The notes beneath the pieces are model-generated. The model saw only the letters and a program-made list of their open reading frames with translations. It was not told the DNA's origin and did not search any database. Positions 4,545 through 58,754 of a DNA stretch of 64,000 nucleotides are shown here, one piece after another. Position numbers and translations under genes: made by a program. Position 1 is the stretch's first letter. Every line of letters starts with the position of its first letter. The stretch spans positions 61,752,001 to 61,816,000 of the forward strand of contig NC_091482.1 of the NCBI RefSeq assembly GCF_036971445.1. The letters run 5' to 3'. The stretch is from Narcine bancroftii (lineage: Eukaryota).

Positions 4545-6400
4545 AGTCAAGTCAAGTTTATTGCCATCTAATTGTACAAGAACAACCTGACGAAACAGCA
4601 TTCTCCAGTCCTCGGTGCAAAATGTGCAGACACATAACCAGACATAACCCTCATACAGACAAATAATACATATGCAGGAAAAATATTTCATCTATACAAA
4701 TAAATAAAATATATTATCACTTAATTAAGAGAGCCTTGGATGGTTAGTGTGAGTAGTTCCTTTGGTCGTTCAGCATTCTCACTGTCTGTGGGAAGAAGCT
4801 GTTCCTCAGCCTAGTGGTGCTGGCTTTGATGGACCTGTATCCAACGAGAACAGCTAAAAGATGCTGTGTGCAGGTTGGAAGGGGTCCTCAATTATTTTGC
4901 GTTCCCTCTTCAGACAGCGATCCCAGTAGATCATATCGATGAAGGGAGGGTGAGACTCCATTGATCCTCTCATATGGTCCTGTGGATTGACTGCCAATCC
5001 ATTTCTCTGCAGCAACTGTAACCATATTGATACTGGGCAGGGTGCTCTTGATAGAGTTCCTATTGTAGGTTGGCATAATGGTGGCTAATAGCCTTTCCCA
5101 CTTCAGTCTTCTCAGGAAGTTCAGTCGCTGTTGCACCTTCCTGACAAGTGAGGAGATGTTGAATGTCCACGATAGATCACTAGTTAACTCCAAGGAACTA
5201 GGTGCTCTCCACTACTGAATTGTTATGTGTAGTGGAGGGTAGTCATTCCTGGTCCTCCTGAAGTTCACATTCATCTCCTTGTCTACATTGAGACTCAGAA
5301 TGTTACTCCTTCACTATTTTATGAAATTTTCCGCCTCTTTAGTGCGATTGATCTTTATTGCTGACGAAGCCAACTACTGTTGTGCCATCTGTAAACTCAA
5401 TGTCACTGTTGGAGTTGGATCTGGCAGTGCAGTTGTGGGTTGTAGCGTGAACAGGAGCGGGCTGAGTGTATAACCCTGAGATTCACCAGTGCTCAGTATG
5501 ACATTGCTCAGCGTTCTGCTACCAACTTTGCGAAAAGACCATAGTCTATCTGGGAAGTCCAGGATCCAGTTAGAGATGGGTGTTGAGTCCCAGTGAGGAC
5601 AGCTTCTCCACCAGCCTCTGGGGAATGATTGTGTTAAACGTTGAGCTGAAGTCAGCCTGGTGTGTGAGACATTGTTTTCCAGGAGGGCCAGGATGGATTA
5701 AGGGATTTTCAGAGAATGTGATTATTATGAAAAGGAAGATTAGCATCAGAACAGTGAAGTGACAAGGCATTGTTGGTGGAACGGTTTCTTCTATAAGCGA
5801 ATTAAAATGGATCCACCTCTAGGAGGTGTGCTTTGATGCATTCTATCACCAGACCCTCGAAGCATTTCATTATGGTGGAGGTCAGTGCCACAGGGTGGCG
5901 GTCATTGAGGACTGTAATTGTGGCCCTCTTGGGTACCAGGTAATGGTGGCTGTCTTGAATCCTGCAGGAATGATGGACTGCTGCATAAGGTGTTGAAGAT
6001 GTCCGTGAAGATCGCCATCAATTGATCTCCACAGTCCTTCAGTACCTGACCAATTATGGTGTCTGGTCCTGCCGCTTTGTGAGGGTTCACCTTTTATAGG
6101 GTTCTCCTTACCTCAGCTGTATTTCTGCAGGGGGCCTGTTCATCAGGGGGACATGGCTCTTTAGCGTCATCCTGTTCTTCTCATCAAACCATACAAAGAG
6201 GATGTTCAGAAGGGAGGCATCATTGACCTTAACTTGCAAGGTTCACTTGTGATCCGTTAGTCCTGATCCCCTGCCACATGCGCCTTGTGTTACTGGTGTC
6301 GCACAGCTGTCTGGATCTTCTGTGCATACCCCTGCTTTGCCTTCTGGATTGCATGGGAGAGTTCAGCCCCAGCTGATCTTAGTGCCACTCTATCCCGAGA
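4545..6400 (-). mobile_element. Decayed Rex1/Babar-type LINE
   Basis: Minus-strand RT remnants [43 protein letters not shown] and DLSWTFNISSLVRKVQQRLNFLRRLK; tail AATAAACTTGACTTGACT. Confidence 0.8.
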
Positions 6401-7278
6401 TTGTGTCTGGATCATGTCGGTTGCCTTCCCTAGACAGTGGGGGACATAGATTGAGTCCATGGAGGGTATTCATGGTCTCTAGTATTGACAAAAAGTATAC
6501 CAATTGATTTTCATGTTGTTTTGGGGACATAGATCAGTTGGGCCAAATTGAATTCAAGATCATTTTGTCGTTTAGAAACTCGGGGATCAGAATAAACCAT
6601 TTGGCCCTTCGATCAGGACTGTTAGCATCATAATAATGTATAGCTGCTCTCATTCCTTAATCCTGAATATGCTACCTCGGCATAAATCTATGAAACTATT
6701 TTATGTTTAACCACTAGTGAATCCCCAGTGTGTGGTTGACTGGGAGCAAAGTCTTTCTGTGGGCAAGGCTGCATGTGTGTGGTGCAGGTTCAATTTATGG
6801 ACCATTTGCTTCACTCTTGTGATTTCTTTATATGAGAGTTTATTGTCATAAGTAAGTACAATTACAGATGCATCCTCTAAATGTATCTCTTGGATGAATC
6901 CTTTAGGCTGATTTGTAACCTCTTCAAATGAGAAATATTTTTCTGTGTATTCGATAGATCTTTTTAGGAAGCTACCCAACTGAATTAGTGTATAAATTGC
7001 TATATGTACAAGAGTATTTGCTGTGATCTGTAGTTTAGTCATAATTTAGATTACATCATAACTGTGTTACTCTTTAAAATTGTACTTCATATTCTGACTA
7101 TAACATTACATATTTTAATATTTATGGGCATTTTATGTGCTGGGTTGCATTAAAGTTTATCAAAGTACATTTGAAATTGTGCATAGTCCTAAGAAAACTG
7201 TCACATTATTTCCAAGTCTGAGAAATCACTGTTTTAAAATTATGTACAGCTAATTTTATTTTTTTTTATATATATAAG

Positions 7279-8610: not shown

Positions 8611-8723
8611 TCATTGTCTTCGAAGTAGGAACATCAGTAAAACAGCACTCAGGAGTATACAAAGGATGCACACAGTTGGGACTACAATCTCAGTCACCAT
8701 CTCCATATGATTGATAAGAGGAT
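8611..8723 (-). CDS. LCTL: LCTL terminal exon 13 (transmembrane anchor)
   Basis: cttttag|AT CCT...; encodes (D)PLINHMEMVTEIVVPTVCILCILLSAVLLMFLLRRQ*. Confidence 0.95.
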
Positions 8724-9809
8724 CTAAAAGTCAAAAGAAAAATGTATAATGCAAACATTGCTTTTAATTATTTGAGAAATAATGTAATTTCACTAAATCA
8801 AATGAATTTAAGGCTGATAATATTCTACCATTTGCTTGTTTAGGGGGGAAAAAAAGCTGGGTTACATCTTTTGCTGAGAATATTGACAGCAGTGTTCTGC
8901 TTTTCTTCCACTTTTAAAGTAAAACTAGATTAACTGAAGCATTAAATTCCTTTAAAGCAAATGACAGAAAAGATGATACCTTAAACTGTCTGTTGGACAG
9001 AAATCTAATCCAAGACATTCATCATTTTCACATAGTAATGTATGTAAAAATATTATAACTTAATTTATTTGACTGTTTTCTGCTTAGTGTATTTGGATTT
9101 TGTGTGCAAAATTCAAAATATCCATTTTTGATACTGAGATGGTAACCTGTGTATTAGAGCAGTGTAAACAATCTTGCTCTTCCAATACTCTACCTCAAGT
9201 CAATGTAACCAAATGTCTTTGTATCTATCACATGAAGAGGTCAGCTTCTCTCACTGTTTTCTTAACATATAACAAACCATATAACAATTACAGTATGGAA
9301 ACAGGCCATCTCGGCCCCTCTAGTCCACACCGATTTTGCCTCTTCTTTCTTTCTTGGTGTTCCATCATCCCAGTTCCCATTTCAAGACCCCTACCCACTC
9401 ATCGACTCCACGGTAAACCTGTGTACATCCTGCTGTCTCAGGCTCCTGAACAGAGTTCTTAGACTTCCTCTGTCTCTTATACAGGCAAACCCCGCATTAT
9501 AAGGAGTGGAGGTTGCTTTCCTAGAAACCAATCTGTACCAAGCTTTTCTGTAATGCAAAGTTGTCTCAATTGCAGGAAATAAGGGCAAGTTGAAAAAAAC
9601 TGTGTACATATTTTTCCCCATATAAATTCCATGGAGTGAGTTTTATTTCTTCTCTCTAATTATTAGGTAGTGATTTGTGAATTTACTCAGGGTGAGTTTC
9701 TTTCAGTTGAATGGCAGTAAGTCAAGGATTGCCTGTGTTCTCTGCCAGATTTCGAGTATCTGTTGGTTCAGCAAGATCAAAATACCCAGCAGGCTCTATT
9801 ATGGGCATC

Positions 9810-10560: not shown

Positions 10561-11327
10561 CACCAACATTTTTCAATACAATATGATCTCAAACCATTTT
10601 CTGTCCATTCATTTTCTGTTAACTCATTTTGTACTTATTTATTGACATTCTTACACTGGAAGGAAATCTGCTTGCTCCCTTTCAACAAAGCATTGTTGTC
10701 TGTCTATACAATACATAACCATTCCTCTTTCCAAAAAGTTTTTGTTCTTTTCTCACCTGAAGGATTTACTTTCCCCAGCTAATCTCCTGTTCTTTACCCT
10801 TTGTAGAAAGTACTTCTTTAGTATTGGGACCAGTGCTGGCTGTGGAGTTTACATGGGGGGGGGGGGGGGGCAGGTATTTCTCAGCAATAGAGCATTTGAC
10901 TGCATTTCCTAAAGATAAGATAGTGTATAGTTTAGGCAACTATAAATTTCCTTCTTGTGGATATGAGAGAGATTTCAGGATAAGTTGGGGGGGGGGGGTG
11001 GGTTTGATGAGCCTCATGGCTCCTGCTGTGTTATTCGAATGGCAAGCATTTGAACTACCTGAAAATAATGGATGCTGCCTGACCTGCTGATTGTTTGCAG
11101 AAGATACTTGAGAATATTGCTTTGTTTTCAAGGCAAATGGGAAAGCATTGAAATCAAAATGTATAATGTTTTATAATAATTGCATATGATTATTTTTGAG
11201 AAATTTCAAATACAAAAGGACAAAATAATACCAAGCTAATTTAGCCAAAAAGGCTAATGTGCACATAATTTTTGATTTGTTTTCAAGACTTCATCTTGGT
11301 ACTGAAATGACATCAATCCCTTAGTAC

Positions 11328-11401
11328 CTAAACTTCATCATGCACTGGCCAAACTGGTGGCAAATATGCCTGGTTCTCATTTGTTCGGTCTGTTCTTCCA
11401 G
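11328..11401 (-). CDS. LCTL: Candidate alternative LCTL exon encoding a soluble C-terminus ...PPVWPVHDEV*
   Basis: Branch-like gctaat, polypyrimidine tract and acceptor (ttcttttttatttgcccttttcag|). Phase matches exon 12; reads (A)GRTDRTNENQAYLPPVWPVHDEV*; TAG is followed directly by gtacta (possible donor). Confidence 0.7.
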
Positions 11402-11864
11402 CTGAAAAGGGCAAATAAAAAAGAACCCATTAGCCCATGAGCAATGCCTCCTCTTCCTATACCTTCCTGAATTTTTTAATGTAACTCTTGCTTTAAAGGG
11501 ATGATATACTTTTTATTGATTTTAATAAAGAATGTACAAATTTTTAAAAATATTTCTAAAGGAAAAGGGACGATAAAAATTGATGCATTGTTCATCTTTA
11601 TGGGGTTTTTTTTGGAAGTTAAGAAGTGTGTGGAAAATACAACTTTTAGTGGTGCATCGTACACTGGTGTGCTTGTTTAATAGTATTAGGCCTGGTAAAA
11701 CCTTTAAACATGAATTATTGACATCCAGATTTTAAAAAATTTAATTCAAGCAAAGTAATAATAAAATATGAAGAATGTCATGGTAAGCCATGTCAGTACA
11801 TTATTAATGGAAAAAATGAAGTTTCGAAACTTGAACTTTGAAATAAATAAGTAATTAAATAGAA

Positions 11865-17346: not shown

Positions 17347-17410
17347 CTGCAGCAAGCAGTGCATTAGTGGTTGAGCATGCCTCCGCAGACTTGCGCAGCC
17401 AATTTTCAAT
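17347..17410 (-). CDS. LCTL: LCTL exon 12
   Basis: IENWLRKSAEACSTTNALLAA; ttttctctggccag| ... G|gtaggt; 64 nt. Confidence 0.92.
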
Positions 17411-18468: not shown

Positions 18469-18668
18469 TTCTCTCTGGTTGGGAAATCCATTGGAGCTGA
18501 TCATCATCCTGTAATATTGAACCGAAGCCTTAGGATATCTCCTCTTGTGCATGGTTTTAAAATCAATGTAGTAAAGGCCAAATCTTTCTGAATATCCTTC
18601 GTCCCATTCAAAATTATCCAGCAATGACCAGGAAGTGTAACCCTTCACTTTAACTCCATCTTTAACAG
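18469..18668 (-). CDS. LCTL: LCTL exon 11
   Basis: (A)VKDGVKVKGYTSWSLLDNFEWDEGYSERFGLYYIDFKTMHKRRYPKASVQYYRMMISSNGFPNQRE; ttacag| ... GAA|gtgagt. Confidence 0.96.
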
Positions 18669-19049
18669 CTGTAAGGTTTCAAAATTAAACATGTTTACAA
18701 AAAAAAATCATTTGACATCACACCAAGAGATGCTGGAAACTTGTAGCGATTTCAAGAGGACTTGTGCTCAATGCACAAGCAGCATTGTTTCAGAAGAAAA
18801 AGTCATGCCAAGAAACAGTGTATTTCTAGTTTACTGTTTGTTTGATATTGAAATAACTTGATTTTTTTCAAAAGTTCTGTTAGCGTTGATCATTCCTGAT
18901 CTCTCAATTGCAGCGATGAGCTGTTTATTTAATAATTAGAAAAAGTCGCTATGCCTCCTACTGTGGCATCATATCTCTGCCTATTGTTTAAAAAAAAATC
19001 AGTTCCCTCTCGCTCTCTCTATAATGAAAGATGTAATATCAAAACCCCA

Positions 19050-19800
19050 GAGACAATTAATAGGTTTGAATATCAATTTATGAAATCATGTTTGCCTAAC
19101 CTACAGGAGTTCTTTGAGGATATGATTAGTAGAAGAGATAGGGGAAACTGATGGATGTCGTGTTTTTTCTTAGATTTTCTGAAGGCTTTTGATAAGATAC
19201 CACAGAGGAGGTTGCTCAACAAGATTGGACCATATGGAATTGGGACAATGTCATGGACTGGGCTGATAATTGGTTAACAGAGCAAAGACAAAGTTGGCAA
19301 GAGTGTCTCGTGAGGTTATGCAGGGATCAATGTTTGTGCCCAGTTGTTCATAATTTCTCAGTGATTTGGCTAAGTAGGAAAGACGAAATGAAGCTTCAAG
19401 GGAATAATGACAGGTGAGTGGATGACAACAAGGCAAAGCAATGACTAAGACCTTGATGAAACTGCAGTTGGATTATAGATAACATTTCTGGCCTCCTTCC
19501 ATTAGAAAGGATCAACTTGCCATTGAAGAGAACTGCAAAGAATTACTAGACAAATTCCTGGTACAACAGGTTTATATGAGATGAGAGTTTTAGTAATAGA
19601 CCTGTATTCTCTAATCTTTTACAAGATTAAGAAGTGATCTCATTAAAACGCATCAGATTCCCTTGAGGTCTGACAGCTAATACAGGATGGTCTAGAAAAG
19701 CCTCACCCTGTAGACTATTTACGACACAGATGAAGAGAACCCTCAAAGACATTGGTGAATCAGGAATTCTCAACCATGGAGGTTTCTGGAGGCTCCATCA
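19050..19800 (+). mobile_element. Old CR1-type LINE fragment
   Basis: KSCLPNLQEFFED and GATTTTCTGAAGGCTTTTGATAAGATACC (DFxKAFDKIP) RT motifs. Confidence 0.7.
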
Positions 19801-20644
19801 TCAGCACTCCTTGTATTCAGAGAGTCTCTGCACCCTTTCCAGCTTAATGATATCTTTTCGATAGCTGACCAAAAGTATGCACAATAGTTATGTGTGATCT
19901 CACCAACATCCAGATGAAGGATTTTGGCATGAAGCATCATCAATTATTTTTCTCCCACTGATGCTGCTCGACCTAAGTTCCACCAGCAGATTGTTGCTCC
20001 TGTACTCAGTGTCCTGACCGAAGAAGGTATTTGGCACATTTGCCTTCATCACCACTTGCATAGAACTCAGTACCTATATCCCAAGTCTTTTTGTCCTGTC
20101 CAGATGTAAACATGTTTTGTAATTAACACTCTTTGAAGCTGCAAGATGTACTGAGGACACAGGGGTAGCTGTTCAAGGCACAGTGGTGAGATTTAGTAGC
20201 AGCTATCTACTCATTTATTCTGACAGGGGAGCAATTTGGCCTATCAAGTCCCTGCTGACTCCGAGCAGAACAATCCCTTGACTCCCATTTCAACCCCCAC
20301 ACACCCCCCCCCCTTCTCTGTATCCTTGCAACTTTCTCTCCCCTCTCCTTTTTTTTTGTCAATTCATCGATTAGTGAGTGTATGGATTTTGAGGGGAAAA
20401 TGAACCCCCTGAAGTTGTCACAGGAAAAACATGCAAATTCCATGTAGACGGCCCTGTCAGAAGTGGACCCAGGTTGCTCAAGGTGTGAGGGAGTAGCACT
20501 AACTGCTCCACAGCCGCACCCTCTAATCTTTAGAACATCAAAACTAATTTAAAAGGAAATTCTTCCTGCTTTCTCATTTTTTGTTCACTCCCAGGGCAAT
20601 TGTTGTTACATGGAAAAAGCCTCATTTTGATATGAAGAAACCAC

Positions 20645-20771
20645 CTTTCAGAATCTCGTTAACATAATTATTCATGTACTGCATTCGCCACTTGTCGCAG
20701 AGCTCTGGACATTGCCATTTTTCCGATACTCCATTTTCGGTTATGTAGATTCTCGGGTCTCCATATCGACT
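20645..20771 (-). CDS. LCTL: LCTL exon 10 (ITENG nucleophile motif)
   Basis: SRYGDPRIYITENGVSEKWQCPELCDKWRMQYMNNYVNEILK; tttcag| ... G|gtggtt. Confidence 0.95.
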
Positions 20772-23151
20772 CTGAAACAAATCAGAAAGCAACAGCATGG
20801 CAAATTAAAATTTCAGTCACTCAAATTCATCTTAATATAGAGGATAGTTTCTGATAGGTTAGCACAACAAGAGTTTGTACGATGGGATTTTCTGCCATCT
20901 TGTTAAAAAAATTGAAAAGACTCAGGTGTCAAAAGTCTGCTTGGAAACATGGGAGAATTATTACTCAACACAAGGGGACATTATTCAGTAGTAAGTGATA
21001 ACCTTCAATCTTCCTGATTACTCTGCAATCATGTAAATACATTTTGTTATATGTAGTCATTGTAAATGTAATATTTTTGTTTCAAAACCTCTCATCTTCC
21101 TTGCCAACATACATCAGGAAGTAATGACAAGTCCTCAGTTGCTCAAGCCTTCCCTTGTACATTTTGTGAAAAAAAATTTAGCAAAAGATGATCCCCTTGC
21201 ACTCTTTTATAAATGTACATCTCTATGGCCAGGATTATATAACTGCTGTAGCACTACTCCCTATACTGTTGTCTTAGTTATTTCCTTGTTATTTATGCTC
21301 TACCGGCTGTATGTATGATAATAAAGCCGTTCATTTTTTTGGGGGTTGGAAGCAAGTGATCATTCTCTCCCAAATTCACATTGTATAAATTTGACATTAC
21401 AAACTGGATTACTTATTGAAACATCCAAGCCTCGACCTCATTGGAACAGACCAAGCATCTAGACAGGTATCCCATGTCACAAAATCTTAGGCCTTGAAAT
21501 TTGCAAAGTATTGCAGAATTTATGGAGAGAAGACTACACCTGGTGATGTGTTTTAAGGTGTACCCAAACTGGCTGTTGAGATTGCTTTTTAAAACAGAGC
21601 ATGACATGGAGCAGAAGATACCTGATTAGAAATGAATCATTTCAGCTGGAGTTGATCCCTCACCTGGTGTATTATTTTAAATGTGTTTGGTGATATGTAA
21701 TGAGACAAAAAGTCAGGCTTTTCACATATATTAAGCTATTTATGAGATCAACCTTTGATTCTTTTTCAGATGTCCTGGTAGCAGGAGTTTACATCTCCCC
21801 TTCACCTCAAATTCATGATATTAACAAAAATTAAGTGTTGACTTTCCTTTTAGAAGTTTGTTTTCTTTGCTATCTTATTTGTTTATTTAATGTTTACCTT
21901 AATAAAGATATTTTTCTGGGTTTTTTTTGTGATTTGTAAATGATGCTTGGCATTATTTTCCATCTTTCAAAGCTTCAGTAACAAACCTGTTCCTGAGTCC
22001 GCATTAAATGAGACCCAGTATAATGGAAAAATAGCAAGTTGATGTGGCTTCTTCAGCACCATGTCCCAATCCTGTGATCTTTTAAGACCAAAGGATCTTC
22101 GATCTGGTTGGAAGAACTCTGCCATGATCTGTGGAAAGAGAAACCAGTGAACATTTTGGTTTTCAACCCACAATGTTGACTGGTTTCAGCCAGTGCCTGT
22201 TTTTTTTTCTGATGAAAGCCCCAGGCCAAAAATGTTGGTTACCCTTTACTTCTTATGGATGCTGTGCAACCAGCTGAGTTTCTTCAGCACATTTGTGTAA
22301 TCCCCTTGACCCCAGCTTCTGCAGATTCTCTTAACTCCAAACAAGGCTTCTGGAGGAATAGGGATATGGCATTTTATAAAATAAGGACATATTTGTGTTT
22401 TTATTAACTCAGACCAATTCCCTGAAATGGTTTTACAGCTAATTAAATGATTTGTCATGATACAGAAAACTTGACCATCTATTTGCTTGCCCCAAGGTCC
22501 CACATGAAGCAATCTGACCACCAGTGATGCAAGTCAAGAGATGAATATCATCTTGGAAACTGAGAGAAATTCCTTCACTCTATAGTATTGCCCTAGAATT
22601 TTTTGATCTTCCTGATAGCATTCTGGTTTAAAGTCTCAATCAAAGACAAGATCTCTGTTGATGTCTCATTCCCACAACATCACATGGGTCTATTATGTTT
22701 TCAGCTTTGAAGTCACCCCAGCCTATGTGGCTTTGACGAGGACATTACCCACTGAGAGATGACCACACATGTGAAGTTAAGACAACAAAACGAATGGTCA
22801 AGCTTATTTTCTACTTAATGTGGCCCAGTTGGAAGCAGCTAATCGGAGTTAAAAGATTATATGTTTAAGTCTCACTACAGTGCAGCACTAAGAGAGAGAC
22901 ATTAAACCAAAATGCTATCCAAGTCTCTTGGGCAGAAAAAAAGTTATGTGAGACCTGGTCCAGATTTAAATCCCAGTGAAAGAGCAGATCGTGTGTTTAT
23001 TGGACTTTCTGTACACAAATGAATGATTTGAGTAAATATGACTTTGACTTGCAACACTCGAGCAAGTCATGGGTTCATTAAATATTAATCCTTTTTGCAT
23101 TACTCCTAAAGTAACAAATTGATCTATGCATCTCTGATTTGCAGCAAATAC

Positions 23152-23426
23152 CTTTATGAAATTCAGGATTCTCCTGAAGCCCCAGGGTACTGAATAGAGC
23201 CACTCGGATCCTGGGTCTGGCCACTGGGGATCAACGAGCTCCAATAAGTCGCGATCGGTGTGATAACTTGGTCCCTTGCTATGATGGTAATTCTTGTGAG
23301 TGATGTAGCGAGTTGTGAAATGACCCAGCCCAAAAAAGTCTGAAGTGCCTTTGATGAAGTGTTTCTCCTGTGGAGTGAAGGCAGGCAACCTCGAGCCACC
23401 CAGACCTTCCTGTGAACTCTTCCTCC
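23152..23426 (-). CDS. LCTL: LCTL exon 9
   Basis: (G)RKSSQEGLGGSRLPAFTPQEKHFIKGTSDFFGLGHFTTRYI...WLYSVPWGFRRILNFIK; ccacag| ... AAG|gtattt. Confidence 0.96.
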
Positions 23427-24244
23427 CTGTGGATGGAGTAAACACCAGAGTCGGTCAGAGCTGAGGACAAAGGTTTGACAGTTTGAACAATACCACTGAC
23501 TCATGGCCACATTTTGTTCTGGATTTCCTCTGCTGTGAGAATGAATTGGATTATTTCCTCAAAAATTACCTGGATGAGGCTCAATCAAACTCTCCCACAC
23601 ATTGCTAATTTGAAAGAGTAGAAAGGAGTGCAATAGAAGTTGGTGGAAACAACTATGACAGATGAAAAACTGTCCCCTTAGTACCTTGCTGAATATATAA
23701 AAACTTCCATGGAAAGAATTTCTACGCGCTTTTCTGATGCTACATAGGACATTGAATCTTTCCCTTCTGTCCATGATTTTAAGAGGCATTTTACTTCCTA
23801 TGCAAAGTCATTTCATTTGACACACAGGAACAACAACTGTAGGCTTCACAAGTTGCATCCACTGTTCGTGCAGATCATTAAGGTAAATCTCTGCCTCAGC
23901 TGTCCTGTTGTAAAAGGCAAGCTGAAATCAAATGCCATTGACATCCACTTTGGAATGTTCTCTGGGGTCACCTTTCCCATACTGTCTATTAAAATCAGTA
24001 ATGAGCTGAAGAAACTAAAACTGTAAAATTGTCCCATTTCACACAACGTTAAAAAACAAAATGCATCATTTGCCTGGTGGCATTTTAGACTTCTAAATTA
24101 TGGAAAAACTCAGAATTATGAATATCTGTTTCTGGGCAGATCAATTTACTCTGGGCTTTGTGTTTGTCATGCCAGGTTAAAAAGTGAAAGAGTGTGACTG
24201 TGTGAGCACCATTACTTTATTTTCACCTATTATTTTACACTTAC

Positions 24245-24406
24245 CAATGCAGTCTTTCATAACTTGAGGGTAGTCCCCATTAAAAATGGGGTTAGCAAAC
24301 CATCCGAGGTTAAATTGGATGTAGCGCTCCCCAGCATCAATATCCTTCCGGCTTGTGATGTCAACTGGCTCTCCCCACTCACTTGTGATGGAAATACCCA
24401 CCATGC
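24245..24406 (-). CDS. LCTL: LCTL exon 8
   Basis: (G)MVGISITSEWGEPVDITSRKDIDAGERYIQFNLGWFANPIFNGDYPQVMKDCI; attaaag| ... G|gtaagt. Confidence 0.95.
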
Positions 24407-25578
24407 CTTTAATATTAAAAGAATGTTTAATAATTACCACACAAGTAGACTTAGAATTGGAACAAAAATGTTTCAGTTGTGATTTTTTTAATTGCAATGG
24501 TTCCTGACCTGAAGCATTTCCACAAGATGCTCAGCATCCATTAGTCCAAGATCCCCTGGCTTTACATTTAAAGCATCCGATCTGAAGCCCCCTGTCCTGG
24601 CCATTTGCTTCTTGTTTCTCAATATGCTCATTCATTGCTCAAATTTGATGTTTTATTTCCTAAATTCTTCTGACAGTTTTCATTGATTCATTTTTGTGAT
24701 CTGACTGTAGCTGGCAAGGCCAGGGTTTATTATCCAACTCTGTTTGCCTTTGAGAAAATGGGGTTGAGCTACCATCTCGAACTGTTCTAGCCCTTGTGAG
24801 TGTGTTCCCATGGTATTATTGGAGAGGTAGTTCCAGGATTTAGAACCCATGAAATGGGTGAATAATGTAAAGATGTGAAAGATGAGATTGTGAACTTGCA
24901 TCCGATGTTTCTTGCTGTCAAATAGAAGAACTTGCATTGCAGCTTGGTAACAGAAACTGCTCTGCTCAAGACTGCAGAGAATTCTGAACACAGCTCAGGT
25001 TGTTGCGCAAACCAATCTCCCTAGACACCGTCTATACCTCCTGCTGTCTCCGGAAAGCTGCCAATATATTTAAAAAAACCAACCCAGCCCAGTTACACTC
25101 TCTTCTCCCCCTACTGTCAGACAGAAGAAGCACGAGCTTAAATGGTAAAAGATGAGACACTCGTGCAGTTTTAGTTGCACTTTTCTCTACACCCTGCACT
25201 TTGTTATACATTTTCTCTGCACGCTTCGATATTATAATGTTTTTACAATAATATTGTATTATTGAACTACCTGGTGTACTTGAGCACTGGTTGACTTGTA
25301 TGGATGGCATGCTTTAAAAAAAATTACAATACATGTCAGTATGTATGATATACGGAAATATGTGCTGAGATCAGGACTAACAGATCTTCCTGAAGGCTTT
25401 AATAAAAGTACTTCAGTCAGGATATTGAATCTCATAAATGCCACTTGAAAATGTTGAACCTTCGCTTAAGTTCATACAGCAAAAGGTAGGTAACTTATGC
25501 AGCACACTTGGTTATAGTTTACTCCTGTGCTGTACGTTTGTATTGTGTTTGAGACTTCTTAATTTTGAGAAGCAGTAC

Positions 25579-25633
25579 CTTTTTGGCGGCTGCGCCAGAG
25601 TCTGTCATACGTATGCCAAGCTGTTGCATGGGC
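25579..25633 (-). CDS. LCTL: LCTL exon 7
   Basis: AHATAWHTYDRLWRSRQK; tttcacag| ... G|gtactg. Confidence 0.94.
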
Positions 25634-27002
25634 CTGTGAAACAGAAGTCAACACCCACAGCGTTATTAAGATCAAGGGTTCATTACATTTTTCTCCCTCA
25701 CAATCATGTTTACAGTTTGTACCCACCATAATTATCAGAAAATTAATTATTATCATTGCTCCAAAAACACACTTCAGAGGATCTGAGTGAAAGCTTCATT
25801 CAGTGGTGACACTTGCCTTGGTTTGTGGCCCATGGGTTGAAGCCATATTGTAGCAATGGGCTTGACTGATGTTTTGATGGAATTCTGAGGTAGTGTTGCC
25901 CTGCCACAGGTCCCAGGAACCAGAATCATATACTCCTCACACCCTGGCCTCAACCACAGCCAAAACAGACTAGTTTCTGATATCCATTGTCCTTTGTTTT
26001 CATGTGAATTGAAAGGATGATAATTGTGATGTATTTCATTGGCTCTGCTACACAAGGATCTCTTCAGATCAGGAAAGGTGCTGTGTAAAACATTGAGAAT
26101 CCAACACAAGATTGCCCAGGAATCCTATTGGTTTGGCATCTACTTCAGGACACAAAGGTGCTGGAGGAACTCAGCAGGTCAGGCAACATCCATGCATAAC
26201 AACAGGGAGTTGAAGTTGGGGCCTGAGACCTTCTTCAGGTATGCCGAAAATCAGGTAGATATCCCAAATCTTATTCGGGCAAGGCTTCGGAGTACAGGCT
26301 AGCAAGTGATGGGTGGAAACTAAGAGAAAGGAGGTGATAGTGGGAGAGGCATAGGGTTGAGAATGAGGTCTCTAATAGAAGGGAAGAAGCCGTGGAGCCA
26401 GAGGGACAGCAGAACTGGGGAGGGGAGTTGCCGGGAATTGATGCCATCTGATTTGACATTACAAGGTGTTCCTCCAATTTATGCCATTGGTTTGTATGGG
26501 TGCTGACTGGCCTGCTGAGTTCCTCCAGGATCACGTGTGGTACTAATTTTCCAGCAACTGCAGACTTAATGTTTACCTGGTTTGGCATCTAACTCGCTCG
26601 GTTCTCCCTTTAAACTCACCAGGGCTCCATTCCTGATACTGATGAAAGTTTATTGACATGTATAAAGTACAATGTACAGTTGCACCAAAATTCTTACAAT
26701 GCAGCCAGCTACACTAATGACAATAGTATAAATTAAATTACCACAATATGCCAAGACAGAAAAACAGATAATATTCACATTCCCACTCTATTACCACCCT
26801 CCCATTAAACAGCTGATTAACAAAAAAATTATACCATAGTGTAACATCAAAATTGAATTATAGGTTGTTTGTTATATTAAAAGGAATAACATCCAGTAGT
26901 CCAGAAAATCTGCCAGTTCACCACCACTAGTTTTAAATACCAAATCAGAATTTACTGATCTTTTATTTCAGTGACAAATGATTTTTTGATAGATCAACTT
27001 AC

Positions 27003-27098
27003 CTTAATAATGTTATGGGCTGCCCTGTAAGCTCCAATTCCTTTCAGCTTTAACCCTGGTGCATGATGTCCCATCTCATATCCCTCTACAGCTATAGA
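27003..27098 (-). CDS. LCTL: LCTL exon 6
   Basis: SIAVEGYEMGHHAPGLKLKGIGAYRAAHNIIK; ttgtag| ... AAG|gtaagt. Confidence 0.96.
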
Positions 27099-28384
27099 CT
27101 ACAATATCAAATACATAAATATCAGTTCAAGACAGTTCACATATTTCACATTTATTTCATTGTCATCTGAAGGTCCTAAGGAGTGGGAATCCCACAGATG
27201 AGCTGCAGATATTCAATCCATCTCTGTCTTTTCCTAAATAGGGACCTGTGGTCAATTGAAGCAAGCAGCAAATGGCCCTTAGGGGCAAAGTGATAGAGGT
27301 CTGGAAGAATGAGAGTGGAGTGGAAGCAAAAACAGCATTTTGATGTATACTTAGGCAGGTAACCAAATGCTGGGAATCTGCAATTAGGCTGGTGATTCTT
27401 TACTGACCACAGATATGATGGGCTGAATGGCCTTTGACATCACCATTTTTCTTGAGAAACAGTAGATTAATGTTAAAATAACTTGGAAATTATCTTAAAA
27501 AAGTGCTCATTAGATTTTAGGTGTTGTACCCTGTTGGGAGCAGATCAACCCTAAACCTGAGGTCTCTTGTTCAGGATGATGCTGTTGGCTCCATTTTTGT
27601 TGGGTTTTTTTTATATATATAATTTCTTACACATGATCTCAGTTATTATATTAAACACAAAGCAATAAAAGGTTATGCGTGTGAGATAGGGAAAAATTAG
27701 ATTATGGTGGAGAAGGTCGGCACAACATTGTAGGCTGAAGGGCCTATACTGTGCTGTAATGTTCTATGGAAACATCAGAGAATGTAGTATTAGACTGGCT
27801 TCAATCATAAACATTTGGAAAGTGAAGCTTGAAAAAAATTGATCAAGATTGAAGTGAGAAGAGGAGATAGCAAAGATAAACAAAGAGGGAGAATGAGTCC
27901 CAATCCACAATATTGACTATTTATCTCCATGGATGCTGCCTGACTCAGAGTTTTTCCAGCTTCTCTGTTCACTGTGATAAACTGCTCTTAATCAGGTTTG
28001 TGGCACTGAAATGTGCTTGCTGCCCTGGGGAGCCTGTTCTTCCTGATTTTACAGTTGTGTTTGGATATGCATGATAAACTCATGAGGAACTACATTTTAC
28101 AAAGAAACTTCAACATGGAAGCAAGCTTTTCAATCTGTGCACATCCAAAGGACTGTTTCTTACTAGTATTTTAGTTTTTAAAGTTTGTCAGTTGTGTTTG
28201 TTTTAACTTGAAAACAAGAAACTTTAAGTCCAAAGACCTTTGTAGGAGAGAACTGTTAGATATGTTCATGGTTCATTTATCACAGCAGCTCCAAGAAATG
28301 ACATTAACACGCCAGTGAGATGCGTGCGGGAACTGAAATGTTATTGTAAAGTGCAAAAGTAAATATCCATAACACAAAACATAC

Positions 28385-28513
28385 CCAGGGGTTGTTGAAA
28401 GTTATCCAATGCTTTACTCTGTCACCAAATTTCTCAAAACACAGGTTGGCATAATCATTAAAGAAGTTAACCAGACTGCTGTTCTGCCAGCCACCATATC
28501 TATCTTGGAGGAC
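28385..28513 (-). CDS. LCTL: LCTL exon 5
   Basis: [43 protein letters not shown]; ttttag| ... TGG|gtatgt. Confidence 0.96.
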
Positions 28514-29334
28514 CTAAAATGATAAAGCGTTTTAAAGAGATAAATACAGAATGAAATACACCTATGACTGTGCAGTGAAGCAAAATTCAAATGCCATTTA
28601 CAAATTTGCTGATACCATAGTTGTCAGCAGAATCACAAATAGCAATGAGAAAGTGTACATGAATGAGCTAGGTCAGCTGGTCACCCAACTTTGCACTCAA
28701 CATTAGCAAAACTAAGGAACTGATTGTGAATTTCAGGAGGGGGAAACCAGGAGAACACAAACTAGTCCTCATCGAGGGGTTAGCAGTGGAAAGAACTTCA
28801 AATTCCTGGGTGTCAACATCCCTGAAGATCTATCCTGGGGCCTCTGTGTCGATGCAATCATGTAGAAGGCTCATCAGTAGCTATACTTTTTGTGGAGAGT
28901 TGGTATGTTACCAAAGGCTCTTGCAAATTTCTACAGGTGTACCATGGATAACATTCTGACAGGTTGCATCACTCTCGTATGAAGGTGCACAAGACAGGAA
29001 AAGACTACAAAGAGTTGTGAATTTGCCATCAAGGGCACCAGCCTTAACTTTATTAAGAACATCTACAAGAGGCAATGTCTCAAGACAGCAGCCTCCATCC
29101 TCTAGGACCCTCACATGCCCTCTTCTCACTGCTACCATTAGGAAGGAGGTACAAGAGCCTGAAGACGAACAACCAGTGGTACAAAAACAGCTTCTTCCCC
29201 TCCACCATCAGATTTCTGAATGAACAATGAATCATGACACTACCTCACTTTCTCTTCTTTTGCACTAACTATTTTTTTTTTAAATGTAATAGGAACTTTT
29301 GCACCTGTAACCAAAATAATGAATTTTGTGACAT

Positions 29335-29337
<3 letters not shown>

Positions 29338-29379
<42 letters not shown>

Positions 29380-31778
29380 CACACCATAAATCACATTAGC
29401 CATGATATACACAATTTCTTTTTCACACATATACAGTGACTTTTTCTCCCCCCCCCCTTTCCTCCCAAACCACCCCCCCACCCCCCCTCTCATCCATTTT
29501 AGGTATACAATCTAGGTTGCATTAATCCAGTCAGACAATGTTGTCATTCAACAAAATTACACCAGAAATTCTACTGAGTCCATTCTTTTCTTTCCTTCTC
29601 CTTCCATCAACTTAGGTAATGTTTGTCCCCGGTAGGTTTTCGCTATTGTATTTAATGTAAGGCTCCTATACTTGTTCGAATATTTCAATATTATTTCTTA
29701 ACCAATATGTTATTTTTTCTAATGGAATACATTTATTCATTTAAATTTGGTAGTTTATTCCTTTTAATTTGGTTATGTATTCCATTAATATTTAAAGACA
29801 TATAGTTCAGCGTAGCCCTTTTATATTTTGTTTATCTTCTCTTTCCGTTTTTCCATCATTACCTTTCCTCCTTTTCCATTTCTGTTTTCTTATTTTCAAC
29901 TCTTTATAAGACAACATTCCTACAACATCCAACATTTTCCTTATTCTCCTATTTCTATCTTATTTATTCCCAATCTCCCATTCACCTCCTGAGTTGTCCT
30001 TTATCCCTTGTCGGACAACCACATCTCCCCTCTCCATTTGGATTTGCGAATCCACTCGCAAGCGTCAACTGATTTTGCAGTGACCGCTATTTCCCCCCAC
30101 CCCGCCTCCCCCAGAAAAGATTTCACTTTTCATATGTCACAAAGGTCACTCTTTTAATTCCCTCCTTATTCTCTCTATTTCATTACCTTCCCTTATTAAT
30201 TCTTGTCTATACTATCTATATTTTCCTCTAAGTACAGATACATTCACGTATGCTCCTTGTCTCTATTCACTCTTATACCTCTTTACCCGCATACATATCA
30301 ATCGTGATCATTTTTACTCTCATTACCCGTCTTCATCCCTCAGTCTATTTTTGTCTTTACCCACATACATATCAATTGTGATCATCTTAACTCTCATTAC
30401 CCGTCTTCCTCCCTCAGTCTATTTTTGTAATTGTTCTGCAAATTTTCGTGCTTCTTCTGGATCCGAGAATAGTCTGTTTTGTTGTCCTGGAATAAATATT
30501 TTCAATACCGCTGGATGCTTTAGTATAAATTTATACCCTTTCTTCCATAAAATCGCCTTTGCTGTATTGAACTCTTTTCTCTTCTTTAGGAGTTCAAAAC
30601 TTATATCTGGATAAATGAAGATTTTTTGCCCTTTATACTCCAGTGGTTTGTTGCCCTCTCTTACTTTTTCCATTGTCTTCTCCAGTACCTTTTCTCTTGT
30701 AGTATATCTTAGGAATTTTACTACAATAGATCTTGGTTTTTGTTGTGGTTGTGGTTTAGAGGCCAATACTCTATGTGCCCTTTCTATTTCCAATTCTTGC
30801 TGTAGTTCTGGACATCCTAGGGTCTTAGGGATCCACTCTTTTATAAACTCCCTCATATTCTTGCCTTCTTCATCTTCCTTAAGGCCCACTATCTTTATGT
30901 TATTTCTTCTGTTATGGTTTTCCATTGTATCTATTTTTTGAGCTAGTAGTTCTTGTGTCTCTTTAGTTTTTTTATTAGATTTCTCCAATTTCTTTTTTAA
31001 GTCTTCTACCTCCATTTCTGCTGCTACTGCCCGCTCTTCCATCTTGTCCATTTTCTTTCCCATTTCTGTTAAGGTCATCTCCATTTTATTTATTTTCTCT
31101 TCTGTGTTGTTTATTCTTTTTCTTAAATCCTTAAATTCCTGTGTTTGCCATTCTTTAAATGATTCCATGTATCCTCTAATAAGAGCAAGTATATCCTTTA
31201 CCTTGCCTCTCTTTTCTTCTTCTATTTCACCATACTCTTCCTCTTCTTCTTCCTCTGGGTTGGCCATCTGTTGTTTCTTTGTTGCCCTTTCCTCCTCTTC
31301 TTTCTTGTTTCTGTTGTCTTCTGTGGTCTCTTCTTGCTGCAGGTGTTCTGCAGCTGTCGTTGCCGGCTGTGGAGATCGACTCCCCAGCTGGTCCCCCCTC
31401 CCGTCGGTGTGTTTTTTTTCATTCGCATCGCGCATGCGCGAAACTTCGCGCATGCGCGGTTGCGCACTTTTACTCGGCTCTGCGAGCCATTTTTGTAGTC
31501 CATTATTTACCGACCTGAGGGAGCGGGTTTCTCTCTCCGCAGCGGGCCTCTTCGGACAGGTAAGGCCTTCACCTTTTTCCTCCTTTGTCTTCTCTTCCTC
31601 TCTTCTTACCGTTGCTTTCGACTTTTCTTTTTTTGTCGCCATCTTCTTTCCACCTTTATACTCACTTTTCTGTAACTTTTATTTCTGTGCCTTTGTGTTT
31701 TCTCTTGTTTTTCCCGACTTTTCTGGAGAGGGCTGGAGTTCACCGTCCGGCCACTACTCCATCGCGTGACTCCTCCCC
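29338..31778 (-). mobile_element. L1-clade non-LTR retrotransposon with both ends and intact ORF1 but almost all ORF2 deleted (HAL1-like, non-autonomous)
   Basis: Duplicated AATTTTGTGACATGTT at 29322-29337 and 31779-31794 (last TT overlaps the tail). T44 tract at 29336-29379; 5' end GGGGAGGAGTCACGCGATGG; ORF1 30419-31642; ORF2 stubs 29742-29819 and 29612-29740. Confidence 0.93.
30419..31642 (-). CDS. L1-type ORF1p (Transposase_22/L1TD1-like: coiled coil, RRM, CTD), 407 aa
   Basis: Heptad coiled coil followed by ENHNRRNNIKIVGLKE, IERAHR, PRSIVVKFLRY, IFIYPDIS, KRKEF and HPAVLKIF, all hallmark L1 ORF1p motifs. Alternative start at Met126 (31267). Confidence 0.92.
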   Translation of the reverse strand: MATKKEKSKATVRREEEKTKEEKGEGLTCPKRPAAERETRSLRSVNNGLQKWLAEPSKSAQPRMREVSRMRDANEKKHTDGRGDQLGSRSPQPATTAAEHLQQEETTEDNRNKKEEEERATKKQQMANPEEEEEEEYGEIEEEKRGKVKDILALIRGYMESFKEWQTQEFKDLRKRINNTEEKINKMEMTLTEMGKKMDKMEERAVAAEMEVEDLKKKLEKSNKKTKETQELLAQKIDTMENHNRRNNIKIVGLKEDEEGKNMREFIKEWIPKTLGCPELQQELEIERAHRVLASKPQPQQKPRSIVVKFLRYTTREKVLEKTMEKVREGNKPLEYKGQKIFIYPDISFELLKKRKEFNTAKAILWKKGYKFILKHPAVLKIFIPGQQNRLFSDPEEARKFAEQLQK

Positions 31779-31866
31779 AATTTTGTGACATGTTCATGAC
31801 AATAAATTCTGATCCTTCTTCTGCACTTGCTTTATCATTACAGTCTCTTTCCAGTGCCCTCTAGAA

Positions 31867-32246
31867 CAGTGGTTTTCAAACCACTCCCCAATTCACATTC
31901 CACCTTAAGCAATCCCAATGCCATAAATGCTCTGTGATTAGTAAGGGATTGCCTAAGGTGGTATGTGAGTGGAAAGAAAAAGGTTTGAAAAACTACTGTT
32001 TTAATCGTACCTAATTGACTCGTTATGTGCATGGTTTCATAACTCCAAAGGAATGGCCAATGACAATTTTTCTCAACCAAAGTATTTCAGTAACAATTGG
32101 GTCTGGAGTAGTGGTTCTCAATCTTCCCTTCCCTTCCCTTCCCACTCACAGACCACCTTAAGCCCCTTACCAATCACAGAGCACTTATGGCATAGGAATT
32201 GCCTAAGGTGGAATGTGAGTGTAGGGGGGCAGTTTGAGGACCTCTG
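31867..32246. mobile_element. hAT-Charlie-type MITE with long inverted arms
   Basis: Ends CAGTGGTTTTCAAAC and GTTTGAGGACCTCTG; 8-bp flanks CTCTAGAA/CTTTAGAG; related pieces near 45415-45476 and 53292-53416. Confidence 0.75.
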
Positions 32247-33373
32247 CTTTAGAGCTAATTAATTTGTTTCAACCTAACCAGGAAATCCATCCAGATCAAT
32301 TGGTATCTACAGGCAGATCATGGCTCTGTATTTATATTAATAAGGCCAGAATGCTGAAGAGTAAAGACAGTCTGTGTCCTGCATCCCCAGAATTGGACCA
32401 AAGTTGGAAGAAAACCCAAATTGTACAGCTGTGAAGAGAGACGATCAAAGACCAAGTTGAACCCAGCTCTTTCCTGATCCCCTTCCCATCAATGATGTTT
32501 GACAAGACTGTGAAATTCTCAAGACACTAACACATCGATGCCCAAAAAAGTTTAATCTCCAAAGTCTCTGTAAATACTCAAAGGTATTGAGTTAAAAACA
32601 TTAGAAGAGTATTTTATCTATCCAAAAAAAGTGATCATAATCCAAATCTGGGGAGGGGCCTGTTCATGTGTCATTTCAGCAATTTCAATAAACCACTGAC
32701 GCAAAAACACTGCAGTAAAGGAGAGAGCAGATGGTGGGAACATGTCAAATTTTGTATTTCCCATCCAAAATCTAATTGTAAATTACCTATTGGAATTGAG
32801 GGTAGCCACGGAGAATGTAGTTCAAGTGTGACTTTGATACATGAGAAATGGCAATTAAAGGTTAAAGAGACTTCTCAGTCAGGAGGTCTCTGCATCTGCA
32901 CCATTCCACCCTTACAGATGCCCTTCTTGGAAAAGATTGCAATTATTTAAGGTTTAATGTCAAGAAGAATTAGACAGGGTTTCTCGTGATTCTTTGGAAA
33001 AAGAACAGCCCCTCTTGCTCAAATGAAATCTGACCCTGGGTGAGGCATAGGACATGGAATATGGATGTTACTCCCAAAGTCAGCATTTATTGTCCTTTCC
33101 TGACTCGGGTTAATGTGGAGCCAAGCACATCAGTGGGTCTAGAGTAACATACTAGGCATGGAGAAGTGGATGCAGTCATTCCTCTGTGAGGGCAGTTAGT
33201 AAGTAATGTTCAAAGAGATTTTGGGAAAATTGGAATATAAAAGCAATATAAAATCCTTCAAATTTAAAAGGTTTGTCTGCACTCAGGGAAAAATAGGATG
33301 GGATTTATTTGTTCTCACACATTGCAGGCAGGTTTATTGCCTTTGAGAAGATGATGTGGGAAATCTTGAATCA

Positions 33374-33589
<216 letters not shown>

Positions 33590-34227
33590 TCATTTAAAAA
33601 GAGAGTATTTCTTGTTCTACACTGCTCTAACCTTCCTAGTCTGTGCTCCTTTCTTTGTATCCTTGGACCTCCTTTCATAACTATATAGACAGTGGTGCAA
33701 TATTAATAAAACTAAACTGCTGAATGGGGCAGCAGCGCTGGAGATTTGGTAGGGGTGGGGAGGAAGGGCTGAGAGTGTCATTGCTCAGTGAGGATTTTTA
33801 ATATTCAGGTAGTACTTCAGCATCAGTGAGATTGGGGGTATACAGCGGTTACCCGACCCCACACAGTGCAGTAGGTTTGGATACAGGGCTGGCAGAAGTC
33901 AGAATGCCAGGCCAGTTCTTCACACCTGGGCTGTCGCAGCTGTTGGGCAAGCACACAGTCTCTGCCTCTTGCCCTAAAGGATTCTGAATGGAGAGTGAAC
34001 TTATAATTATATGACAGATTAAAATCCTCAACTCCTACCACTTTCACCCTGATTAACACCCTTACACTCTCTGCCAACAATACACCACTCCATGGGTACT
34101 AAAGTGCAAGTCGGGACTATGCTACGGGGAGGGATTCTGCTCACTTCCGACAACATTAATATTAGCATGTTGGCCTTAAGAGAAGGCAGATGCCCTTCCA
34201 GCAGATAAGCAAAGTGAGTGGTGCTAC

Positions 34228-34315
34228 CTTTTATCCCCGTGGGGATGACTCGAGGCCAGGAAAGAGAAAAACGATAATGATCGACCTTCAGTTCCTTTAG
34301 CAAGGCAATGTCCTC
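34228..34315 (-). CDS. LCTL: LCTL exon 3
   Basis: EDIALLKELKVDHYRFSLSWPRVIPTGIK; ttgcag| ... G|gtagca. Confidence 0.96.
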
Positions 34316-34649
34316 CTGCAATAAACCCAAGTGTTAACCAGGCATTATATGCATGAGAATTATCAGTATTAATTGACTTGGAAAATCATTTCATTAAAAA
34401 GCCAGGTAGCGTGAGCAAGTATCTTCACCAATAAGGCATGTTACTGGAGGATAATTACAGACAGATTTTGTGCTTAAATTCAGATTCATTTTCTGAATTT
34501 GACTGACAGTGGCCGATTCAATCAAATCCATTACGTCTTGGAATAGCATTTAACCATAATCACACCTCAAACATTCTATTGTCTATAAAATGCCTCAAGA
34601 TGTTCTGAAAAGCTCTGTGTGAATACCAGATTCTGATACATGCCCTTAC

Positions 34650-34810
34650 CTTGAATTTATAATAGCTTTCACATGATGAATCCCCGGTTTCATTCAGGAA
34701 TACTTTTCCTTTTTTATGCGTGAAAGCATCCCAGATGCTGAGTCCTTTCCCATCTTGATTCCAAGCCCCTTCAGTCTGATAAGCTGAACTGCCCACACCC
34801 CAGGAGAAAC
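34650..34810 (-). CDS. LCTL: LCTL exon 2
   Basis: (G)[53 protein letters not shown]; gtttcag| ... AAG|gtaagg. Confidence 0.96.
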
Positions 34811-37388: not shown

Positions 37389-37497
37389 CAGCAGGGAAAG
37401 TCCCATAGTAGAAGGATTTCCCCTGGTCTTTAGTCCAATCGAAGTCCAGAGACAGGCACAGGGGGACCACCAACAGGAGAATCACAGGCTGCATCAT
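37389..37497 (-). CDS. LCTL: LCTL coding exon 1 (signal peptide)
   Basis: MMQPVILLLVVPLCLSLDFDWTKDQGKSFYYGTFPA; donor G|gtaagg. Confidence 0.92.

Positions 37498-57077: not shown

Positions 57078-58754
<1,677 letters not shown>

Follow-up and report, generated by a model that had tools for sequence, protein, structure and literature searches.

The lactase-like gene LCTL of the ray Narcine bancroftii carries in its last intron a 74-nt optional exon, for which we will use the term "exon X". Its inclusion replaces the transmembrane (TM) segment of the protein with a short tail ending in the tetrapeptide HDEV. The gene lies in a window of 64,000 nt (NC_091482.1, positions 61,752,001 to 61,816,000), and the same tail is found in gene models from chimaera to frogs. 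We propose that LCTL/gamma-Klotho already had exon X as a cassette exon in the ancestor of jawed vertebrates. Skipping would give a type I membrane protein, while inclusion of exon X would turn exon 13 into 3'UTR and give a soluble luminal protein of GH1 fold with the free C-terminus W-x-x-H-D-E-V. By analogy with known ligands of the KDEL receptor (KDELR), this end would be a low-affinity ligand in which His(-4) favours binding and Val(-1) weakens it; some of the isoform would return to the ER and some would be secreted. We give such a weakly bound, partly retained and partly released luminal LCTL somewhat better than an even chance, its KDELR binding and localisation being drawn from the literature.

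The LCTL gene and its two protein forms

LCTL has been rebuilt on the minus strand of the window from 12 upstream exons running from 37497 to 17347 (1576 nt, with AG/GT ends and a phase 1 end). Coding exon 1 (37389..37497) contains the ATG and a hydrophobic, signal-peptide-like segment with a KD19 hydropathy peak of 2.0 at residue 1. One GH1 domain extends across exons 2-11, which lie within 18469..34810 and comprise exons 2-5 (34810-34650, 34315-34228, 33549-33440, 28513-28385) and exons 6-11 (27098-27003, 25633-25579, 24406-24245, 23426-23152, 20771-20645, 18668-18469). Exon 12 (17347..17410), the upstream exon shared by both forms, ends in the phase-1 donor CAG/GTAGGT. The coding part of exon 13 (8611..8723) encodes the TM helix and a short cytosolic tail, with a KD19 peak of 2.89 at residue 538.

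Conceptual splicing of exons 1-12 to exon 13 gives a protein of 562 aa, and of exons 1-12 to exon X a protein of 549 aa ending in VWPVHDEV, the same figures as in the initial annotation. Over all of its 562 aa, the membrane form matches the RefSeq lactase-like protein of this electric ray, N. bancroftii (XP_069766826.1), at 100% identity. The identification as LCTL is based on a single GH1 domain (Pfam PF00232, E 8.7e-166, residues 32-499), an N-terminal hydrophobic segment, a C-terminal TM segment, and LCTL orthologs as best matches. The GH1 domain is intact in the exon X isoform. An N-terminal hydropathy peak is present in both forms and the TM peak in the 562-aa form alone; with one N-terminal peak and no TM peak, the HDEV isoform fits the soluble luminal class by hydropathy. 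With the skate isoform as query, the structures near LCTL are Klotho, beta-Klotho, and cytosolic beta-glucosidase. For the skate HDEV isoform, AlphaFold2 with an alignment of 38 rows gave a model too poor to interpret, with a mean pLDDT of 44.9 overall and <50 in the tail.

The GH1 acid/base motif of the window LCTL reads NNP, with the Glu missing, and in a regular-expression search NEP occurs in 0 of the 276 LCTL rows with the motif, among the matches listed. The nucleophile motif ITENG is kept in the window protein and in 292 of 316 first regular-expression matches, among the matches listed. Since the acid/base Glu is absent, ordinary glycosidase activity seems unlikely, and the soluble isoform is probably an LCTL without such activity.

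Exon X and its splice signals

Exon X occupies 11328..11401 on the minus strand and encodes the TM-less tail ending in W-P-V-H-D-E-V, the TAG stop being its last 3 nt. A candidate branch-point-like CTAAT (11429..11433, minus strand) is located ~30 nt upstream of the acceptor. It is followed by a polypyrimidine tract and the AG acceptor (11402..11424, minus strand), and the tract, with 18 of 20 pyrimidines, is the highest of the 15 acceptors scored (the gene's exon starts and two remnant candidates). Directly after the stop lies the weak 5' splice site GTACTA (11322..11327, minus strand), and the gene models of two teleosts imply TAY after the stop as well. The donor has 5 of 9 consensus matches, the same as the donors of the constitutive exons 3, 7, and 10. 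The branch-like motif, the pyrimidine tract with its AG, the 74-nt exon ending in TAG, and the GTACTA after it had been read in the initial annotation and are seen again here. Exon X therefore has the acceptor, the open frame in the upstream phase, and the donor of a cassette exon, and both its inclusion and its skipping occur in paired X1/X2-type models of several species (gene models, not reads).

Intron 12 is 8623 nt long and contains 263 YAG sites, of which 20 have a pyrimidine score of 14/20 or better. Among those acceptor candidates a KDEL-like ending is found in the 11401 frame only. When the intron is dinucleotide-shuffled 500 times, a KDEL-like motif arises in 7 shuffles, and the motif followed by GT in 0. 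A profile built from six orthologous tails scores 47.7 at the exon X site and 22.7 at the runner-up (127,936 window positions). A chance ORF has been set aside in view of the profile score, the shuffles, and the conservation of the tail, and we regard it as almost certain that exon X is real. Read-through into intron 12 (527 aa) has been set aside as the source of the alternative end, as it lacks the conserved tail.

Conservation of the HDEV tail

For comparison, 459 proteins among the matches listed have been gathered by two productive protein searches and three cluster look-ups. Of these, 29 were excluded (22 unnamed, 3 multi-domain lactase-type, and 4 mis-clustered RPL4/TIPIN proteins) and 430 named LCTL rows were kept. 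The rows are gene models, neither species nor reads, and all counts refer to the matches listed. They comprise 205 plain TM forms, 128 TM forms with a 15-residue insert, 49 forms with the exon X tail, and 48 others, among the matches listed. The exon X tails come from chimaera, sharks, rays, paddlefish, tarpon, both teleost paralogs (including zebrafish lctla), coelacanth, frogs, and newt. The proposal that a real and conserved exon removes the TM anchor is thus borne out by 49 of the 430 rows, among the matches listed, together with the hydropathy profile, in which the N-terminal peak alone is left.

All 49 exon X tails among the matches listed end in HDEV. They represent 29 distinct tails, and in 29/29 of these (among the matches listed) the HDEV residues and the W at -7 are unchanged. 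Variation among the distinct tails is found at -5 (five residues), at -6 (four residues), and at -8 and beyond. The tails are 24, 21, or 19 aa long, every one in frame to the same stop. Among the matches listed, the tail is present in 8 of 34 chondrichthyan rows and in 0 of 36 rows from turtles, crocodilians, and tuatara, and both of the 2 lungfish rows are TM forms. A loss of exon X in amniotes is only a lead, because the amniote rows of the set are those of turtles, crocodilians, and tuatara, not of mammals, birds, or squamates. When the 44-residue tail region of one protein (P0123) was used as a query, 18 candidates were returned, 0 of them at E<=10.

The exon had been called hidden, a description that does not hold, since RefSeq, GenBank, and UniProt already list the isoform in many fish and amphibians. 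Annotated HDEV isoforms include XP_032906538.1 of Amblyraja, XP_038668855.1 of Scyliorhinus, XP_073762540.1 of zebrafish (lctla), and XP_075431493.1 of Ascaphus. Among the 15 listed of the 16 members of the cluster, the sole Narcine row is a TM form that bears no isoform label. No account of a TM-less HDEV isoform of LCTL has been found in the literature covered, which leaves out most subscription papers. The isoform is deeply conserved and annotated in databases, and apparently undiscussed in the literature.

Two proteins labelled Lampetra planeri (P0038 and P0046), on a 28.9-kb contig, have C-termini nearly identical to those of percomorph lctlb. They are probably teleost contamination and have therefore been left out of the lamprey evidence.

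HDEV as an ER-retrieval signal

The KDELR contacts residues -1 to -4 of its ligands, with His at -4 stacking on W120, and HDEL binds with a KD of 0.26 µM compared to 1.9 µM for KDEL; His at -4 raises the affinity about tenfold (PMC8248988, available passages). In the available text of PMC2140024 the PROSITE retrieval motif is given as [KRHQSA]-[DENQ]-E-L at the C-terminus. Exon X tails do not match this motif, 49/49 of them ending in V (among the matches listed). Section 7 of the same paper describes an AKDEX screen in which L and F are favoured at -1, M is less so, and I gives >20%; V is not named in that section. HDEV is among the binding variants in the available part of a review, as the weakest of four (PMC12328878), while the word HDEV is absent from the main text of PMC2140024, which the review cites for it. 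By analogy with these ligands, HDEV would act in retrieval only weakly, if at all, and falls outside the canonical class, which makes a stably ER-resident isoform less likely than a leaky one. Of the soluble ER-luminal isoform proposed in the initial annotation, the soluble part stands with the loss of the TM segment by hydropathy. The ER part is weakened by the non-canonical tail, its rank among the four binders, and its failure of the PROSITE motif.

If HDEV nevertheless worked efficiently for retrieval in fish and amphibians, the isoform would be a stable ER resident. The invariant HDE core with its high-affinity His would agree with this, fish KDELRs might tolerate Val, and many luminal proteins remain in the ER without their motif, according to passages of PMC2140024. 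We consider a stable ER resident improbable, given that HDEV fails the PROSITE motif, that it has been ranked the weakest binder (PMC12328878, available part), and that 0 of the 49 tails among the matches listed end in HDEL although it is one base change away. The lack of any move to HDEL would be expected under selection for weak binding and equally under a constraint on the RNA.

A C-terminal D-E-V also corresponds to the class III PDZ ligand type. This candidate has been set aside, as a protein with the signal peptide would have its tail in the lumen.

Nucleotide-level constraint within exon X

Gene models suggest that the last 24 nt of exon X (11328..11351, minus strand) are conserved as DNA. 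The 3' half of the exon is read in an alternative frame in 3 of the 430 rows among the matches listed, those of a pufferfish, a darter, and a piranha, and 3/3 of these mis-framed reads are the window's own +1 peptide. Chance agreement amounts to 3 of 1536 encodings for each, and the three are not independent. Identity of the +1 peptide implies that every third codon position is fixed in the 3' half of exon X, and hence DNA identity between ray, piranha, pufferfish, and darter. As a control, 10 of 26 synonymous sites of exon 13 are identical between ray and frog, with 8.9 expected. Exon X also contains TGCATG (11344-11339, minus strand), which the gene models imply in 3 teleosts as well and which matches the RBFOX element. 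The same nucleotides of exon X probably carry splicing-control elements. Matches to GHFTTRY/GHYTTRY in the alternative-frame scan are main-frame coincidences from exon 9 and were discarded.

Conservation at the DNA level makes an RNA-only reason available for part of the peptide conservation. The isoform could then be real and simply secreted, like the splice form of alpha-Klotho, with HDEV fixed by overlapping RNA elements and/or by a partner other than KDELR. The identity of all three alternative-frame reads, set against the 10/26 of the exon 13 control, and the TGCATG within the exon agree with a role of the RNA, while simple secretion gains from the sub-optimal Val at -1 (PMC2140024, available text) and from the precedent of alpha-Klotho, for which a secreted form made by splicing is described in passages of PMC6267267. 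We see this reading as possible but rather unlikely. Two of the 29 distinct tails among the matches listed have Ile at -5, where GCATG is not encodable, and still keep HDEV, and the frog X1 gene model implies another third base in the Val codon, both of which argue against RNA as the only reason. Furthermore, the invariant block consists of exactly the four residues that KDELR reads, plus W, which also counts against this reading.

Onward splicing and the 45-nt exon

The initial annotation has exon X spliced on to exon 13, and gene models of two species agree with onward splicing at the stop or next to it. In the piranha model, the +1 reading of exon X continues without a gap into exon 13, with the junction directly after the stop. 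In the tailed-frog X1 model, the HDEV end is followed by a 45-nt exon and then by exon 13 in a shifted frame. Together the two models suggest the order exon 12, exon X, 45-nt exon, exon 13, with exon X internal in these models. An AATAAA at 10643 in intron 12 means that a transcript end within the intron is also possible.

By the usual rule, nonsense-mediated decay (NMD) acts on an mRNA whose stop codon precedes the final exon junction by more than 50-55 nt. Assuming that exon 13 is the last exon, the exon X stop is 0 nt from the last junction, or 45 nt with the 45-nt exon in between, and exon X does not qualify as an NMD poison exon. With the stop at the exon end, the exon X mRNA is predicted to escape NMD by both routes if exon 13 is last.

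Regulated unproductive exons typically show DNA-level conservation, an in-frame stop, and a weak donor, as exon X does. Inclusion might then serve as an off-switch that lowers membrane LCTL, the truncated protein or mRNA being unstable or irrelevant. The isoform also has the look of a minor one, with 49 of 430 rows among the matches listed, and the three unnamed proteins of full length encoded on short contigs are all TM forms (0/3 with the tail). We hold an off-switch to be very improbable, since the stop at 0 or 45 nt falls within the NMD-immune zone, every change in tail length is in frame to the same stop, and the GH1 domain (residues 32-499) is whole.

Both the constraint on the nucleotides of the exon X 3' half and the 45-nt exon, a third alternative exon, go beyond the initial annotation. 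In bony vertebrates the 45-nt exon adds 15 residues before the TM exon and gives a third LCTL isoform, found in 128 of 430 rows, including those of turtles, among the matches listed. The frog exon, as derived from two frames, has its best window match at 8907-8863 (26/45; next 25, over 127,910 positions), which is also the best protein-profile match in intron 12, not in the whole window. The candidate at 8863..8907 on the minus strand has GG before it and no GT after it. It is probably a decayed copy of the 45-nt, 15-residue exon, in the expected place and without AG and GT, a modestly supported assignment. A live 45-nt exon shifted by 3 nt (8910-8866), for which an AG and a weak GT are present, was rejected because the 15-residue insert occurs in 0 of 34 chondrichthyan rows among the matches listed.

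Other exon combinations are seen in the models. Many models of 274-306 aa from turtles, amphibians, and teleosts are short because exon 10 is joined to exon 13, with exons 11-12 skipped in frame. The phases in the window permit the exon 10 donor at 20645 to join the exon 13 acceptor at 8723, and this form is either an isoform or a recurrent modelling artefact. In two shark models (P0006 and P0135), exon 12 is skipped and exon 13 is out of frame, giving another TM-less end.

Comparison with known systems

The literature passages covered here describe LCTL in its membrane form only. In the mouse, lens sutures require KLPH, which is described as a membrane glycoprotein of type I (PMC13168428), and a review describes all three Klothos as single-pass proteins (PMC8465397). 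This membrane form of LCTL/KLPH/gamma-Klotho (GH1, PF00232) has exons 1-12 in common with the exon X isoform, which has no TM segment. The annotated HDEV isoforms of LCTL have the same exon position, phase, and W-x-x-HDEV end as the window and are unexplained computational models. Splice-derived soluble alpha-Klotho is likewise a TM-less form of a Klotho-family protein made by alternative splicing (PMC6267267). It is described as secreted in the available passages, whereas LCTL has a separate conserved exon, a retrieval-like tail, and a whole single GH1 domain.

Like the KDEL/HDEL signals of KDELR1-3, the HDEV tetrapeptide sits at the free C-terminus of a soluble protein of the lumen and has H-D-E at positions -4 to -2. 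On the other hand, the LCTL tail has Val at -1 and not Leu or Phe. It also has an invariant Trp(-7), whereas the upstream positions of ER proteins are reported to be unconserved in passages of PMC8248988.

Zebrafish lens proteomics lists both paralogs, Lctla and Lctlb (PMC12232379, available part). The tail peptide has 0 matches in the supplement of that study, where the entries are at protein level. As both zebrafish paralogs are present in the lens, a conserved soluble isoform would alter the reading of fish and frog mutants and of antibodies.

A broader and doubtful proposal is that regulated splicing switched ancestral gamma-Klotho from a membrane co-receptor to a soluble form resembling a lectin or a chaperone. 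In this proposal HDEV would be a selected low-affinity KDELR ligand, acting as a timer or stress-release signal and overlying an RBFOX-type element, and the switch would have been lost in amniotes. If this is true, jawed fishes and amphibians would share HDEV as a fixed physiological signal, whereas in the available sources it is met solely as a weak test variant. An invariant non-canonical tetrapeptide also offers a natural test of how weak a selected KDEL-receptor signal can be. A TM-to-soluble splice switch and a KDEL-like tail are each known and the isoform is in databases, which lessens the surprise, and its possible absence in amniotes lessens the medical reach.

Other features in the window

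Upstream of LCTL on the same strand, a single ORF of 558 codons (57081-58754, minus strand) encodes N-terminal ankyrin repeats (Pfam Ank_2, E 1.4e-30) and presumably resembles ANKRD34. Intron 4 of LCTL contains a coiled-coil-rich ORF of 419 codons (30422-31678, minus strand) that has no Pfam match at E<=0.001 and that we take to resemble LINE ORF1. LINE reverse-transcriptase-like fragments are located near 4900-6500.
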